A stretch of 64,000 bases of DNA from Candidatus Promineifilaceae bacterium (lineage in GTDB: Bacteria; Chloroflexota; Anaerolineae; Promineifilales; Promineifilaceae), in assembly GCA_049614105.1 (NCBI GenBank), contig JBMZDF010000001.1:24338-88337 (forward strand), given 5' to 3'. Within the stretch, counting starts at the first letter, position 1, and every line of letters starts with the position of its first letter. The notes under the pieces were generated by a model that saw nothing but the letters and a program-made list of their open reading frames with translations, had not been told where the DNA came from and did not search any database. The position numbers and the translations under genes are program-made. This document shows, one piece after another, positions 42,543 to 48,074 of this stretch.

Positions 42543-43316
42543 TCATGCAAATTCTTGGTGTCGGACATCTTCCTGCAAGAGCTGATTAACAATATGGTGA
42601 ATGCCCTCGCTGAAAGGGTGAGATGGATTTGATTTACAGAATACGCTAGCACTTGCGTTTTGAACCACCTCAATCGAGAGGGGCAACACGGCCGCAATAT
42701 TGCACTGATAGGTTTCTGCGACCTGTTTGCTGATAGTGGCGAAGTTGTAATTGGTTGGCACTTTATTCACCACTAGCTTGACATCTGGCACACGAAGCCG
42801 CCGAGCCACGTCAACCGTGACGCTCGTGCCTTGGAAATCTTGCTGATCTGGGCGCAAAATAATAATGAGAGTGTCGGAGATCGCAATCGATAACAACGTC
42901 TCCTCGTTCAGACCCGGATGGGTGTCAATCAGCAGGAAATCAAGTGACTGTGCCGCTATCAAATCACGAAAGGCCGCATGCATTTCACTTGCATCATATT
43001 TCTCACGCAAGATGCGGGCAATATCATTTGGGTCGATACTTGATGGGACAAGCGACACAAATCCGCCGTTTTCAGTACGATAAACTTCATGCGCTGCTTC
43101 CAAAATTGTGCAGTTGCCCCAGAGGTAATCGTTAAGACAAGACCCCGTTTCAATATCATCTAGGCCAAAGATAATGTGGATACCAGGTGATTGAATGTCG
43201 GTATCAAAGACGCCAACACGATACCCTTGGTCGGCCAAAGTGATTGCAAGATTGGCGGTGACATTTGACTTACCCGTGCCGCCACGAAAGGAATGGGTTG
43301 AGATTATCTGGGTCAT
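42543..43316 (-). CDS. MinD/ParA-superfamily P-loop ATPase
   Basis: The motifs MTQIISTHSFRGGTGKSNVTANLA and LLIDTHPGLN are present. The start is set at the M preceded by a ggaga RBS. Confidence 0.7.
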   Translation of the reverse strand: MTQIISTHSFRGGTGKSNVTANLAITLADQGYRVGVFDTDIQSPGIHIIFGLDDIETGSCLNDYLWGNCTILEAAHEVYRTENGGFVSLVPSSIDPNDIARILREKYDASEMHAAFRDLIAAQSLDFLLIDTHPGLNEETLLSIAISDTLIIILRPDQQDFQGTSVTVDVARRLRVPDVKLVVNKVPTNYNFATISKQVAETYQCNIAAVLPLSIEVVQNASASVFCKSNPSHPFSEGIHHIVNQLLQEDVRHQEFA

Positions 43317-43389
43317 GGTTTCTCCATTAGTGAACATTGTCTGATACAAGTCTCAGCGATTTAGCAGTTTGCTGGGGTAGGTGAGTTGC

Positions 43390-44865
43390 TTAGGCTGTGG
43401 ATGGTTTAAGCGACTCGCGTAGCTGGGTTACATTTAGCTCTAAACGTTTGAAAAAATCTGTTTCGACAATCGCATCCAGCCGCTCTTTTTTCTGGTGATG
43501 ATTGATTTTGATATGCAAAGCGGCTACCTGTTCCTTCAAATCGGTTTCACGTTCCCACACCTTGCCAGACATTTCGTTGAATGCGTTGGCAAGTACAACC
43601 AGTTCATCAAATGAGTTGACCTGTATTTTGTCCGCTTTGTTATCGGCCGAAACCTGTTGAACACCTTGCAAAAGTTGGGCAATCGGCCGATGAATAAGCT
43701 GTGTTAAATAAATCGCCAGCGCAGATGCGAGAATCACCAAAAACAACGTCACAAATAAAACACGCATCCGCATTTGAATGGCTGGCGCAACCACCTCTTC
43801 ACGTGGAACCGTGATACCAAGCCGCCAGCCAGTTGCTTCAATCGGGGCATACACCAATAACGAAGTATCGTTGTTGGTATCGTTGTTGTAATAGCCAAGC
43901 CCTGTGACATCTGAAAGCATCGAATTGACAAGCTGACGAAATTCGGCCGAACCTGTCTCCTGCAACTTTATCGCCTCTTGCTCCCCTTTTGTTGCGTCAT
44001 TGTCTTGAAAATCGGGGTGCGCAATAATGCCGCCCGTATGATCGATCAGAAACCCATGCCCCGCGCCTTCGAGCACTTGGATATTGAGGGCGATCTCCTT
44101 GAGCGACCCAATCGTGACATCATGCGACATAATGCCCAAAAAATCGCCGCCGCTGCCGATCAACGGTTTTGAGGCGGTGACCATCCAGCCTGCCCCGGCA
44201 AAATCGACATAGGGGGCGGTCCATTGCAACGCATAAGATGGATTATTAGCTGGCTCCGCGACCGTATAAAAAACAATTTGGGTTGGGTCCCACGCATCAG
44301 GATAATGATCATTACTGGCCCAAGGATAAAGACGCATCATACCCTCTGGCGTCGTCATGTAGATCCACTGTGTATCTGGGCTGACACCCTTAATGCCTTC
44401 AAATATCGTGTCGAGCTGTTCCGTTTGGATGATCGTTTTGGCAACTGTGGCGTCCACATCGGCCGATGCCCAGTAAACATTTGAGAGCGTGTCACCCAAA
44501 CTGTCGGCCCCTCCGCTGCGATTATAGTAATCGTCTAGCCCTAGAATGCCGCGATTGTCTAGCTGATAACGCATTAGCTCAGTGGTCACTATCTCGTCAT
44601 CAATTGGCGTTTCTAACACTTCCACAGCCTGATGCGCGGCAATCTGTGTGGTGTTGGCGACCTCGTTCAAACGAATATTGATTTCTTCCGCACGGGCGGA
44701 CGCAAGCTGCAATAAGTTTGCTTCCATTTGAGCGGTCAATGCTCGCATACTTTGGCTTGTAAATAGAATCGAAACGATCAGAATGGGGATCACTGAAAAG
44801 GACAACAGCGCAATTAAAATCACACGAGTGAGGGAGCGTTTGAGCCAAGACAATATCGTATTCAT
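43390..44865 (-). CDS. Cache-like sensor and HAMP protein with no recognisable output domain
   Basis: The architecture is TM, an extracytoplasmic ~330-aa region, TM, HAMP (IHRPIAQLLQGVQQVSADN...FDELVVLANAFNEMSGKV) and a short coiled coil. Confidence 0.7.
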   Translation of the reverse strand: MNTILSWLKRSLTRVILIALLSFSVIPILIVSILFTSQSMRALTAQMEANLLQLASARAEEINIRLNEVANTTQIAAHQAVEVLETPIDDEIVTTELMRYQLDNRGILGLDDYYNRSGGADSLGDTLSNVYWASADVDATVAKTIIQTEQLDTIFEGIKGVSPDTQWIYMTTPEGMMRLYPWASNDHYPDAWDPTQIVFYTVAEPANNPSYALQWTAPYVDFAGAGWMVTASKPLIGSGGDFLGIMSHDVTIGSLKEIALNIQVLEGAGHGFLIDHTGGIIAHPDFQDNDATKGEQEAIKLQETGSAEFRQLVNSMLSDVTGLGYYNNDTNNDTSLLVYAPIEATGWRLGITVPREEVVAPAIQMRMRVLFVTLFLVILASALAIYLTQLIHRPIAQLLQGVQQVSADNKADKIQVNSFDELVVLANAFNEMSGKVWERETDLKEQVAALHIKINHHQKKERLDAIVETDFFKRLELNVTQLRESLKPSTA

Positions 44866-44875
44866 AGGTTTTTTC

Positions 44876-46522: not shown

Positions 46523-46527
46523 AGTGA

Positions 46528-46806
46528 TTAGTTAAAGAAGGAGTCTAGCAACCCACCCGACGGGCGTTTCCTGGGCGTATTGCCCTTTGGTGAGATTTGA
46601 ACTGAATAACGCAGCTCGCTCTCATCATGCAAAATGAGTTTGGCGGAACGCACCATCTGGCTGAGCACTTGGTCGAGTTCTCTAAGCGGGATGCGTGTTC
46701 TACGGGCAATTTCGCGTTTTGTTTGAAATGGGCGTCGTACTAAACAGCGAATCACATCCTGTTCGGACGCAGAGACTTGTAGTAGATCGAGTGGGCTAAG
46801 CAACAT
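46528..46806 (-). CDS. Small winged-helix protein, paralog of the N-terminus of the 44876-46522 protein
   Basis: MLLSPLDLLQVSASEQDVIRCLVRRPFQTKREIARRTRIPLRELDQVLSQMV aligns with LSTLDLLNANPVEQDILRCVTRFPRLSVRAITERINLPSAEVAITIEELV. Confidence 0.6.
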   Translation of the reverse strand: MLLSPLDLLQVSASEQDVIRCLVRRPFQTKREIARRTRIPLRELDQVLSQMVRSAKLILHDESELRYSVQISPKGNTPRKRPSGGLLDSFFN

Positions 46807-46814
46807 AGTAATCT

Positions 46815-48074
46815 TTATAGTTGTGAGCTGACTGGGGCATGTGCTTGTGAAAAAGGGGCGGGTTGTTTTTGATGTACCATGTTGATAATCAGGTTTGCGG
46901 CATGGTTGCATTCGCGCATGTCGGCGAAGTCGGCCGCCATGCGCTGTGCGTTTGTTTCTAACGTTTGATCGCTGGTTAATCGGCCGAAACTTTCCCGCAG
47001 CCGCGCTTCGGTCACATCCTCAACAGGCAGGCAAATAGCCACGCCAGTCTCCGCACAACGTTCAGCCACCAAAAAGTTCTCACTGGCCGTCACAATTTGC
47101 AACATCGGCAGCCCGTGGCTCAACGCAGCAAGCATCACGCTTGATGTCCCCGTTGCGATCACATAATCAGCCCGTGGGAAAATTAGTTGATGCGGAATAA
47201 AGCGGTCAACAAAAAAGTTGTCTGGTTGGGTTGCTGTGACTAAATCTGAATCGTTGGTTGAAACAATGACGCGTACAGGGCGATCGGCCAGAACGGATAC
47301 AAGGGTTTCCCAGAAATCAGGTATCCCCTCCCTCATGTGATTTTCTTGTTCAAATTGGCGCGACCAGCGATTATCGTGTTGTACAAAACAGATCGGCATG
47401 TCGGTATCAAGTGCCGCTGCCAGCGTGCGGTAAGCATTTTGGTCAACAGACGGATACCATGTGCAAGCACCGACCAGCCGTACTTTGGTTGGTAAGCGCA
47501 AGTGATTTGCCTGCAAGGCTGAAATTGAGCGCAGTAAGTATAAATCGCCTAAAAGCGGGAATTGGTCATAGTCGCCTTGATACGGCGTGTGGCCGCAAAT
47601 AGAGGCGATTTGGTTGGCGATGTGCATGACGGTCAGATAGCGTAAGCCGCTGTCGGTATGAACTTCATCAGGTGTACTGTTGGGCAGCGGCGCATTTTCG
47701 CAAGTCGGCCACATATACGTGCCTAAACCAAGTACTGCAACTGGAATGTGATGCCATTTGGCGAAAAGAATCGCTCCCAGCGCCATTGAGGAGGCGACGA
47801 TTGCATCTGGTTGAAATACGGCTGCTGCTTCACGAACAAGCGCCACTTGCAACACGTTCGGTTTGGTGCTGCCCCACAAACTGACCCGAAAAGCGACACG
47901 GCTCGGCTCGCTGCCGGTATTGACGCGAGGGCAATTTGCTTCGTCCAGTTCAGAATCAAACCCTGATCCCGTTACAAAGCCGACGGTGTGCCCTAATGCC
48001 TGAAGCGATTGGGCAACGCGAATGGCTGGATAGATATAACCGTGGCTGGCAAGTGGACAAAACAAAAAGCGCAT
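46815..48074 (-). CDS. GT-B fold glycosyltransferase (GT1/MGT-like)
   Basis: MRFLFCPLASHGYIYPAIRVAQSLQALGHTVGFVTG is typical of the GT1 N-terminus. The C-terminal donor-binding region reads ATGTSSVMLAALSHGLPMLQIV...AERCAETGVAI. An aaaggag RBS precedes the chosen start. Confidence 0.7.
   Translation of the reverse strand: MRFLFCPLASHGYIYPAIRVAQSLQALGHTVGFVTGSGFDSELDEANCPRVNTGSEPSRVAFRVSLWGSTKPNVLQVALVREAAAVFQPDAIVASSMALGAILFAKWHHIPVAVLGLGTYMWPTCENAPLPNSTPDEVHTDSGLRYLTVMHIANQIASICGHTPYQGDYDQFPLLGDLYLLRSISALQANHLRLPTKVRLVGACTWYPSVDQNAYRTLAAALDTDMPICFVQHDNRWSRQFEQENHMREGIPDFWETLVSVLADRPVRVIVSTNDSDLVTATQPDNFFVDRFIPHQLIFPRADYVIATGTSSVMLAALSHGLPMLQIVTASENFLVAERCAETGVAICLPVEDVTEARLRESFGRLTSDQTLETNAQRMAADFADMRECNHAANLIINMVHQKQPAPFSQAHAPVSSQL

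Follow-up and report, generated by a model that had tools for sequence, protein, structure and literature searches.

A four-gene cassette with a Cache-HAMP sensor and a MinD-type ATPase accompanies lanthipeptide genes in uncultured Chloroflexota

We analyzed a 64-kb stretch of DNA (referred to throughout as the window) from an uncultured Promineifilaceae bacterium (Anaerolineae, Chloroflexota), and in it the interval 42543-48074, where a glycosyltransferase gene is followed by a cassette of four genes encoding a small winged helix-turn-helix (wHTH) protein, a multidomain protein of 548 amino acids (aa), a Cache-HAMP membrane sensor and a MinD/ParA-type ATPase. The cassette, or its core pair of 548-aa protein and MinD-type ATPase, lies beside genes for peptides that are made by ribosomes and modified after translation (RiPPs) in all 18 informative loci. 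The interval is best read as the distal half of a lanthipeptide cluster of class II with an NHLP-type leader, from which kind it departs by an operonic family 1 glycosyltransferase (GT1) and by a zinc-less cyclase domain in the synthetase. That the cassette is a dedicated chain of sensor, switch and DNA binder, built on a MinD-type ATPase and serving the peptide cluster, is a reading to which we give slightly less than even weight. The fuller proposal is a doubtful one: an unrecognized form of transmembrane signalling, in which an output-less Cache-HAMP receptor would use a MinD/ParA-type ATPase as its switch, in place of phosphorylation or a second messenger, to act on a transcription factor of pseudo-ParA type with an S-adenosylmethionine (SAM) lyase-like ligand or catalytic domain; the pathway would govern production of, or response to, a glycosylated lanthipeptide from a zinc-independent class II synthetase.

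The row of genes to which the cassette belongs, and two associated elements, are as follows:

51673-51951, minus strand: orf92, 92 aa, which opens the minus-strand row; an open reading frame without a Pfam or NCBIfam match
51332-51571, minus strand: lanA, 79 aa (TIGR03898)
48123-51239, minus strand: lanM, 1038 aa, class II lanthipeptide synthetase
46815-48074, minus strand: GT1-family (GT-B) glycosyltransferase, 419 aa, with an ATG start as in homologues; candidate peptide-tailoring enzyme
46528-46806, minus strand: small wHTH protein, 92 aa
44876-46522, minus strand: multidomain wHTH/cNMP-fold/ParA-fold protein (cNMP, cyclic nucleoside monophosphate), 548 aa
43390-44865, minus strand: Cache-HAMP membrane sensor, 491 aa
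42543-43316, minus strand: MinD/ParA-type P-loop ATPase, 257 aa
51271-51305, minus strand: 15-bp stem-loop (15 pairs, 6 GC) with a U-rich tract in the lanA/lanM gap; terminator- or attenuator-like
52045-52081, no strand assigned: two copies of TGCCAACNGGNAC at a distance of 22 nucleotides (nt), within the intergenic region of 286 bp that separates orf92 from a divergent DUF7005 gene; putative operator

The eight genes share one direction from 51951 to 42543 (open reading frame listing and translation), the start codons of the glycosyltransferase, small wHTH and ATPase genes having been chosen to agree with homologues. An earlier note on the window, made from the letters alone, spoke of nine co-directional genes: the row is real, and its count is the eight that the note itself named. 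The mostly short junctions that it described are confirmed by gaps of 101, 92, 48, 8, 5, 10 and 73 nt from orf92 down to the ATPase gene, that is, ~100 nt around lanA and 5-10 nt at several places, and each of its domain labels is backed by Pfam and NCBIfam scans. The small wHTH gene begins 8 nt after the glycosyltransferase gene, and within the cassette the gaps are 5, 10 and (before the ATPase gene) 73 nt; the gaps of 5-10 nt suggest co-transcription of the row.

The stem-loop between lanA and lanM is the sole strong terminator-like hairpin on the minus strand of the region, with an RNA fold of -33.1 kcal/mol (z = -3.24 against shuffles). Lantibiotic operons often attenuate read-through into lanM by a hairpin after lanA. 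Promoter-like and terminator-like matches in the region occur at background frequency, and no Rfam family (structured RNA or riboswitch) reaches its gathering score anywhere in the window. The two TGCCAACNGGNAC copies start at 52045 and 52067, and the first contains TGCCA-N2-TGGCA. Repeat and palindrome were considered as a shared operator and rejected: they are found in the window only and in no relative locus. Orthologues of orf92 (52-59% identity) stand directly upstream of lanA in the relative loci L005 (17229-17495), L017 (11355-11627) and L025 (3341-3640), which are also the loci whose LanA is closest to that of the window.

A search seeded with the 548-aa protein returned ~31 full-length relatives at 35-40% identity, and all of those with a named taxon belong to Anaerolineae or Ardenticatenales. 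Loci L001-L022 were assembled from genomic-context look-ups and a scan of species-representative genomes; removal of duplicate loci and of contigs ending at the cassette left 18 distinct informative loci, the window included. A scan of metagenomes for more loci returned only nine, mostly short fragments or stand-alone domain genes, with L027 a near-duplicate of L018. In 14 of the 18 informative loci a LanM gene lies within ~10 kb. The other four also carry RiPP genes: L018 has the two genes (C39-FAD and 374-aa) that flank LanM elsewhere, L015 and L021 have the DUF7005/NHLM export cassette, and L008 has a Cys-rich peptide with a GG leader. The linkage to which the earlier note drew attention is thus conserved throughout, while gene order is shuffled from locus to locus. 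The relatives have the cassette as a unit of its own, either upstream of the lan genes or divergent from them, whereas in the window it comes directly after the glycosyltransferase gene. It is therefore the neighborhood that is conserved and not an operon; the single operon is specific to the window, and what the earlier note had called a lan operon that continues into these genes is an arrangement peculiar to this genome. Its remark that the additional genes fall outside the standard lan toolkit is borne out.

Conservation differs sharply between the products. Identity to the window across relatives is 60-75% for the MinD-type ATPase, 52-61% for the Cache-HAMP sensor and 42-53% for the small wHTH protein, against 35-39% for the 548-aa protein, 30-41% for the glycosyltransferase and 24-36% for LanM. 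ATPase and sensor are thus more conserved than the biosynthetic enzymes LanM and glycosyltransferase, and the pair that stays invariant from locus to locus is made up of the ATPase and the 548-aa protein. Two genes that converge on the cassette ATPase gene, a ParA-type ATPase (AAA_31; 41177-42124, plus strand) and a 130-aa basic protein (orf130; 42127-42519, plus strand), were considered as part of the system and rejected: the pair (41177-42519) is absent from all relative loci, and the conserved neighborhood therefore ends exactly at the ATPase gene.

Two further sets of genes recur in the relatives. Directly 5' of the cassette most of them carry a gene for a 76-84-aa peptide, a polyprenyl-synthase-family gene, a gene for a ~800-aa HisKA_3 kinase and two LuxR regulator genes, a ComX/ComQ/ComP/ComA-like layout (for example L001 4241-9522; L003 3901-9393; L005 4567-9834; L022 209-5937); the window has only one such LuxR-type regulator, at 59255-59905. 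A fused C39-peptidase/FAD-oxidase gene and a gene for a ~374-aa protein without a family match recur beside LanM (L003, at 368-3311, L004, L009, L011, L016, L018, L019, L020 and L022) and are absent from the window.

The lanthipeptide genes themselves are of recognizable type. LanA matches the mersacidin/lichenicidin type 2 model TIGR03898 with 64.7 bits (cut-off 23.5). Its leader is NHLP-like and GG-cleaved, scores 25.7 bits against the NHLP model TIGR03793 (cut-off 50.9) and bears the motif VVRAWKDEEFR...ELSDEELEQIAGG, of which VVRAWKDEEFR is common to the leaders of the window and its relatives and ELSDEELEQIAGG forms the end. The core, RGICICTRGCTFTKKEKA, contains three Cys and three Thr. 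Core peptides are wholly different between loci, with no residue conserved across them. Export genes lie on the other side of the divergent intergenic region:

52238-53317, plus strand: DUF7005 protein (PF22541, 296 bits), heading the divergent export operon
53314-54078, plus strand: short HlyD-like NHLP bacteriocin secretion protein (TIGR03794, E 8.5e-29; Pfam HlyD_3 and Biotin_lipoyl)
54045-56291, plus strand: C39-peptidase ABC exporter of LanT type (NHLM_micro_ABC1; TIGR03796, 1008.4 bits, cut-off 853.3)
56270-59206, plus strand: second ABC subunit (NHLM_micro_ABC2; TIGR03797, 819.8 bits, cut-off 709.4) with an N-terminal extension of ~300 aa
59255-59905, minus strand: response regulator of NarL/LuxR type, with 48% identity to the earlier of the two regulators that precede the cassette in relatives

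The exporter at 54045-56291 has the Pfam domains Peptidase_C39, ABC_membrane and ABC_tran; the HlyD-like protein is partial (100.7 bits against TIGR03794, below the cut-off of 156.2); and DUF7005 genes recur beside LanM or export genes in L001, L010, L015, L017, L021 and L025. With lanA, lanM and the C39 exporter the cluster holds precursor, synthetase and leader-cleaving exporter. It resembles the NHLP/Nif11-leader class II clusters of the prochlorosin/ProcM type (TIGR03793-03797), which have an NHLM export cassette of three genes, in its LanM, its GG-cleaved NHLP-like leader, its C39-peptidase ABC exporter, the second ABC subunit and HlyD. It differs from them in the addition of an operonic GT1 gene, DUF7005, orf92 and the four-gene cassette, in a LanM cyclase domain without zinc ligands and in a leader that stays under the model's cut-off.

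LanM scores 680.7 bits against TIGR03897 (cut-off 304), 346.6 against DUF4135/PF13575 and 118.9 against LANC_like/PF05147. The dehydratase motif DxHxxN...DLE is intact, with DxHxxN at residue 367. The cyclase domain (residues ~859-955) lacks the three zinc ligands and the acid/base His, reading GYASG, WHDG and LANG where relatives read GxxHG, WCxG and LC[HC]G. The zinc ligands WC and C[HC] are kept in nine of 11 relative LanMs, the exceptions being those of L025 and L013, in which the same loss is seen, and the acid/base His in seven of 11. All three zinc-less LanMs (window, L025 and L013) have a GT1 neighbor, and the four LanMs without such a neighbor (L009, L010, L011 and L022) all retain the zinc ligands. 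The numbers are small, and this association of zinc-less LanM with a glycosyltransferase neighbor is only a lead.

The LanM of the window nonetheless looks like a working synthetase, since it is full length, keeps the dehydratase motif and has a cognate LanA. By these same features it is set apart from the LanM-like protein CA_C0082 of Clostridium and the class III LanKC enzymes, with which it shares a cyclase domain without the zinc-binding motif and which provide precedent for such a domain (PMC10301443). The same source, in what it relates of its reference 28, has zinc-ligand mutants of lacticin 481 synthetase that dehydrate their substrate and cyclize it poorly.

The glycosyltransferase matches EryCIII-like_C (PF06722) with 55.8 bits (cut-off 31.7) and the MGT model TIGR01426 with E 3.9e-26, which is below its cut-off; among solved structures CalG1, YjiC and OleD come nearest, with E-values as low as 4e-15. 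The N-terminal catalytic-His motif (G-x-H-G) is present as LASHGYIYPA, with the His in nine of 11 clade members, and G12, Y15, G28-H29 and E332 are invariant. The clade is small (11 proteins found) and RiPP-associated. A member lies directly 3' of LanM in eight loci (window, L001 with two copies, L005, L013, L014, L017, L020 and L025), and a 32%-identical member (P0309 contig, genes at 1741-5120) follows a radical-SAM enzyme and two ~60-aa peptides, so that tailoring by this clade may reach beyond a single class of RiPP. Both placements speak for a tailoring role, as do the retained His motif and the glycosyltransferase next to each zinc-less LanM: the enzyme would glycosylate the dehydrated core peptide, and because the LanM of the window lacks the zinc site, Cys, Thr or dehydro residues may stay free as sugar acceptors.

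The known glycocin enzymes belong to GT2 and not to GT1. As in NAI-112, cacaoidin and the S/O-glycosylated glycocins, a glycosyltransferase gene in a RiPP cluster is here taken as tailoring; the synthetase, in contrast to those of NAI-112 and cacaoidin, is of class II, and the glycosylated product is predicted from gene adjacency. The earlier note had thought a glycosylated class II lanthipeptide unusual, and this holds: the literature searched contains no class II example and names only NAI-112 (class III, with the glycosyltransferase AplG) and cacaoidin (class V) as glycosylated lanthipeptides, each with a glycosyltransferase gene in its cluster (PMC12328550, PMC8068269), while a 2020 survey notes glycosyltransferase genes in some clusters, uncharacterized (PMC7268733). 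The predicted glycosylated class II product would be new.

Alternatively, and independently of how the cassette is read, the glycosyltransferase may modify another acceptor, be it a lipid, a precursor of the cell wall or some small molecule (self-resistance, as with macrolide glycosyltransferases, is one example), or may be catalytically impaired. Its top family matches are to macrolide and natural-product enzymes, below curated cut-offs. The NDP-binding (diphosphate-binding) motif of GT1 enzymes, HHGGxGT, is replaced by ATGTSS in the window and by xGTSS across the clade, family scans of the neighborhood found no sugar-nucleotide or sugar-activation genes, and the cores share no conserved residue; motif and missing sugar genes also count against peptide glycosylation as such. 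We nevertheless hold another acceptor, or an impaired enzyme, to be unlikely, given that adjacency to LanM persists in eight loci whose surroundings are otherwise shuffled, that a homologue adjoins a radical-SAM enzyme with two small peptides, and that the invariant residues argue for a functional enzyme.

The 548-aa protein of the cassette was modelled with AlphaFold (predicted local distance difference test, pLDDT, 77) and divides into four domains:

46307-46522, minus strand: wHTH, residues 1-72 (three helices and a beta-hairpin wing in the model; HTH_24, E 0.0046)
45833-46240, minus strand: CRP-like cNMP-binding fold, residues 95-230 (PF00027, 36.4 bits, cut-off 27.5)
45203-45811, minus strand: ParA/MinD fold, residues 238-440, without the Walker A lysine (pseudo-ATPase), Walker-B-like D344/G346 invariant
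44879-45190, minus strand: C-terminal domain, residues 445-548, beta-alpha-beta-beta-alpha-beta-beta; uncharacterized family related to phage SAM lyase

Residues 95-230 find CRP, GlxR and DNR in Foldseek. In an alignment with E. coli CRP, the residues E72/R82 of the phosphate-binding cassette are replaced by Val/Gln in the window and by Leu and Thr/Ser in relatives; a canonical relative, P0179, keeps GE...RSA at the cNMP-contact positions. The earlier note had called the protein cNMP-binding: the fold stands (PF00027, Foldseek), and with the contact residues missing the term is a fold assignment only. Its other label, degenerate ParA, agrees with the model, with the Foldseek match of residues 238-440 to the ParA-family ATPase 3ea0 (E 1.8e-9, TM-score 0.63-0.65 by target) and with an alignment in which the P-loop position has no GK[ST]; the fold assignment rests on model and Foldseek, and weak profile matches to FleN structures were also obtained. 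The idea that this domain is a recent duplicate of the cassette ATPase is unsupported (hhalign probability 5.8%, over the stretch from Walker B to the C-terminus only).

The C-terminal domain is the most conserved part of the protein (81% mean column identity) and, modelled alone, reaches a pLDDT of 88.6. Foldseek places it nearest to phage SAM lyase (6zm9, E 2.9e-5, TM-score 0.60) and SAM-AMP lyase (9gad, E 1.6e-3), then to CutA/PII-like trimers. Sequence signals stay below thresholds (PF23780, 13.9-17 bits, cut-off 28; weak S-AdoMet_lyase and DUF3574), and in a profile search of PDB the two lyases come top with non-significant values (E 0.26-0.47). The family is large, with 1772 representative clusters at 50% identity and a match to phrog_3543 (E 6e-9). 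Stand-alone copies of ~115 aa, annotated as hypothetical, occur in large phages of Bacillus, Lactobacillus and Staphylococcus (for example in the records OK499991.1 and MH884508.1), and L033 4457-4804 is a further member of the family. Elsewhere the domain comes last in longer proteins, where it is preceded by a canonical cNMP domain, by PATAN plus TrmB, by a metallo-beta-lactamase domain or by Cache plus a transmembrane segment.

In other lineages the module of pseudo-ParA plus SAM-lyase-like domain is joined to these same partners, as in P0264 (L026 6001-8475), P0180, P0216 and P0179 (L023 6001-7389). P0264 unites Cache and a transmembrane segment with the whole module in a single chain, which we read as Rosetta-stone-type support for the view that Cache sensor and pseudo-ParA module work together. 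A constant association of this wider family with a MinD-type ATPase was rejected, P0179 and P0264 standing alone.

The sensor consists of a first transmembrane segment, an extracytoplasmic double-Cache domain, a second transmembrane segment (both read from sequence), HAMP and a conserved tail of ~55 aa (Pfam: HAMP 26.1 bits, cut-off 25; MCP-like_PDC_1 27.4, cut-off 27; dCache_1 39.7, below 45). In an alignment of 16 orthologues the tail reads VWERE..LK..VAE.RIEID....SIVETDFFKRLE; it is a coiled-coil. Pfam, NCBIfam and the alignment give no output domain after HAMP (MCPsignal, HisKA/HATPase, GGDEF or cyclase). Some 10 kb away from the cassette lies the gene for an adenylate or guanylate cyclase with double-Cache and HAMP domains (31507-33756, plus strand), and the sensor was considered as its truncated paralogue; the two share 30% identity over the transmembrane-HAMP stretch only, and the idea was dropped.

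The ATPase matches ParA (70.5 bits), AAA_31 and CbiA in Pfam. Its Walker A motif, HSFRGGTGKSN, does not vary among 17 orthologues and has Arg at the position of the signature Lys; Walker B is intact, and the C-terminus, where MinD has a membrane-targeting helix, is poorly conserved. Scores against the MinD equivalogs are below cut-off (TIGR01968, 50.7 against 212.9; TIGR01969, 95.1 against 201.75), and family scans found no min genes (minC or minE) near the cassette. The small wHTH protein is a paralogue of the N-terminus of the 548-aa protein (tblastn cross-matches); among 17 orthologues its basic linker varies while the motif GLLDSLF at the C-terminus is conserved, and Pfam and NCBIfam give a weak HTH_9 match (E 4.4e-4) and no ParB match. 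A role in anti-phage defence was rejected, as PADLOC returned only P-loop-level matches of the ATPase to a candidate system and none for the other proteins.

The cassette resembles parts of MinD, ParABS, CRP/FNR, chemoreceptors and kinases, TIGR03896 proteins and SAM lyase, and lacks the defining features of each; membership of TIGR03896, the MinD equivalogs, CRP and SAM lyase was rejected on curated cut-offs or defining motifs. The closest likeness in mode of action is FleN/FlhG on FleQ, in which a MinD-family ATPase is a nucleotide-dependent switch on a DNA-binding regulator. Here, by contrast, the partner is a pseudo-ParA/wHTH protein and not an AAA+ enhancer-binding protein, there is no flagellar context, a Cache-HAMP membrane protein belongs to the same unit, and Walker A has a signature Arg and not Lys, which also sets the ATPase apart from MinD (KGGxGK[ST]). 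Type Ia ParA proteins (P1 ParA, F SopA) likewise combine an N-terminal wHTH with a ParA fold and have a small DNA-binding partner alongside, but in the cassette the ParA fold is without the P-loop lysine, the chain contains a CRP-like insertion and ends in a SAM-lyase-like domain, there is no ParB family protein or centromere, and the setting is chromosomal and RiPP-linked. Whereas CRP/FNR proteins have an HTH after the cNMP fold, the 548-aa protein has its wHTH at the N-terminus and a ParA fold in that place. The bacteriocin-transport-associated cNMP proteins of TIGR03896 share with it a position next to NHLM-type export genes, but its score of 22.1 bits (cut-off 161.05) covers the cNMP part only and the architecture differs. 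LanRK/NisRK and ComQXPA exert dedicated control of a peptide cluster by an extracellular signal, as may the cassette, which unlike them has no kinase or receiver domain. With phage SAM lyase (Svi3-3, PDB 6zm9) and SAM-AMP lyase (9gad) the C-terminal domain shares a fold, at ~20% identity and with Pfam scores below cut-off (the comparison is one of folds), and here it ends a signalling protein. No report of lanthipeptide or LanM genes with a MinD, ParA, Cache or cyclic-nucleotide cassette was found in our literature collection, which is incomplete.

How the four proteins might act together can be sketched. The Cache domain would sense an extracellular cue, possibly the mature peptide, and through its cytoplasmic tail the sensor would control the dimerization, dependent on ATP, of the MinD-type ATPase. 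This enzyme would in turn pair with the 548-aa protein at the pseudo-ATPase domain, and the pairing would switch DNA binding by the wHTH of that protein. The small wHTH paralogue may be a partner, a competitor or, via its C-terminal tail, an ATPase-stimulating adaptor, and the SAM-lyase-like domain could provide a ligand-binding or catalytic input. Several features are consistent with such a chain: linkage is kept while order relative to the lan genes is shuffled, and the gaps are tight (8, 5 and 10 nt); the Cache-HAMP protein has no output domain and a conserved tail; the ATPase has an intact GKS P-loop and Walker B; a lysine-less ParA-fold domain is joined to a wHTH; and there are two paralogous wHTH domains. 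There is precedent for the principle: FleN, an ATPase of MinD type, modulates FleQ, a transcription factor, and the ParA proteins of type Ia, which unite wHTH and Walker ATPase, act as repressors.

A number of observations weigh against this chain and keep it below even. The hairpin 3' of lanA and the 73-nt gap 5' of the ATPase gene make separate transcripts possible, and no operator motif is common to the loci. Two of the four components are not constant, the sensor being absent in L010 and L017 and the small wHTH protein in L014, L015, L020 and L021. Elsewhere the pseudo-ParA plus C-terminal module occurs without a DNA-binding domain and without a MinD neighbor. Conservation in the 548-aa protein is highest in the SAM-lyase-like domain, to all appearance an enzyme or ligand binder, and this suggests a core activity other than transcription. 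Relatives already carry a full ComQXPA-like cassette with two LuxR regulators, so that a second regulator is not obviously needed. Profile similarity between ATPase and pseudo-ATPase is weak, and heterodimerization is therefore a conjecture. Finally, all genomes are metagenome-assembled.

The same proteins could instead make up a positioning machine. ATPase, small wHTH adaptor (ParG/ParR/ParB-like) and pseudo-ParA protein would then form a ParA-like apparatus, not a means of transcription control, with a biosynthesis or export complex, the Cache protein or a DNA locus as cargo in a filamentous cell. The complete, if deviant, Walker A/B set of the ATPase fits this, as do the basic linker and GLLDSLF peptide of the small wHTH protein, which recall ParA-stimulating adaptors, the invariant pairing of an ATPase with a ParA-fold protein, and the Foldseek matches to ParA folds. 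Against it, no ParB was found and the one region scanned for repeat arrays (51560-52260) has none; the cassette is chromosomal (one carrier contig measures 4.99 Mb) and is tied to RiPP genes, not to origins of replication; a sensor facing outside the cytoplasm and a ligand fold like that of CRP are features of signalling, not of partition; and the presumed adaptor is missing from four loci. On balance we think positioning improbable.

A role downstream of the peptide, in place of control over it, is less probable still. The Cache protein would be a receptor for the secreted lanthipeptide, and ATPase and pseudo-ParA protein would alter the envelope, division or differentiation of the producer filament, not lan expression, for self-protection or as a morphogen-like response. 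In its favor, family scans found neither a LanI nor a LanFEG immunity gene in the row; the cores vary, and conservation of the cassette proteins is far higher; MinD-family ATPases place division sites; and some lanthipeptides are morphogens, with morphogenetic activities mentioned in abstracts of the literature. Yet cores that differ completely are hard to square with peptide-specific recognition by a Cache domain that is 52-61% identical between loci, two wHTH domains argue for a DNA target, and the sensor is dispensable in L010 and L017.

Chance, finally, is strongly disfavored: that the cassette is an unrelated housekeeping operon merely abutting the lan genes might be argued from its separate position and own upstream spacer in relatives, and from the hairpin after lanA together with promoter-like matches (though these are at background frequency), but RiPP genes lie within 10 kb in 18 of 18 loci despite rearrangement, where by our own rough estimate a random gene would be within 10 kb of LanM in ~1% of cases or fewer.

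The sensor-switch-DNA-binder reading thus remains the one that we prefer. The window is of interest on several counts. It predicts that uncultured Chloroflexota have a family of class II lanthipeptides that bear sugars, a combination not present in the literature searched, and the pairing of glycosyltransferases with LanMs that lost the zinc site offers a direct, cloneable test of new RiPP chemistry. The domains of the cassette are familiar and their mix is not: the Cache-HAMP protein is output-less, the MinD-type ATPase is an Arg variant, and wHTH, CRP-like and pseudo-ParA parts share one protein. A regulatory role, if it holds, would take the P-loop ATPases of the ParA/MinD kind into gene control that is coupled to a receptor. 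The C-terminal family (1772 clusters; phrog_3543), otherwise one of small phage proteins, gains a cellular signalling context.

Elsewhere in the window, a second C39-peptidase ABC transporter (13429-16167, minus strand) and an ABC ATPase (16671-18845, plus strand) hint at a further peptide-export locus. The regions 230-6021, 23562-25406 and 34831-37503 encode a 1433-aa protein, which has a clostripain-like region and an FHA protein as neighbor, as well as a regulator with BTAD and AAA_16 and a STAND NTPase of NB-ARC type, a load of conflict or signalling genes that is typical of multicellular bacteria.

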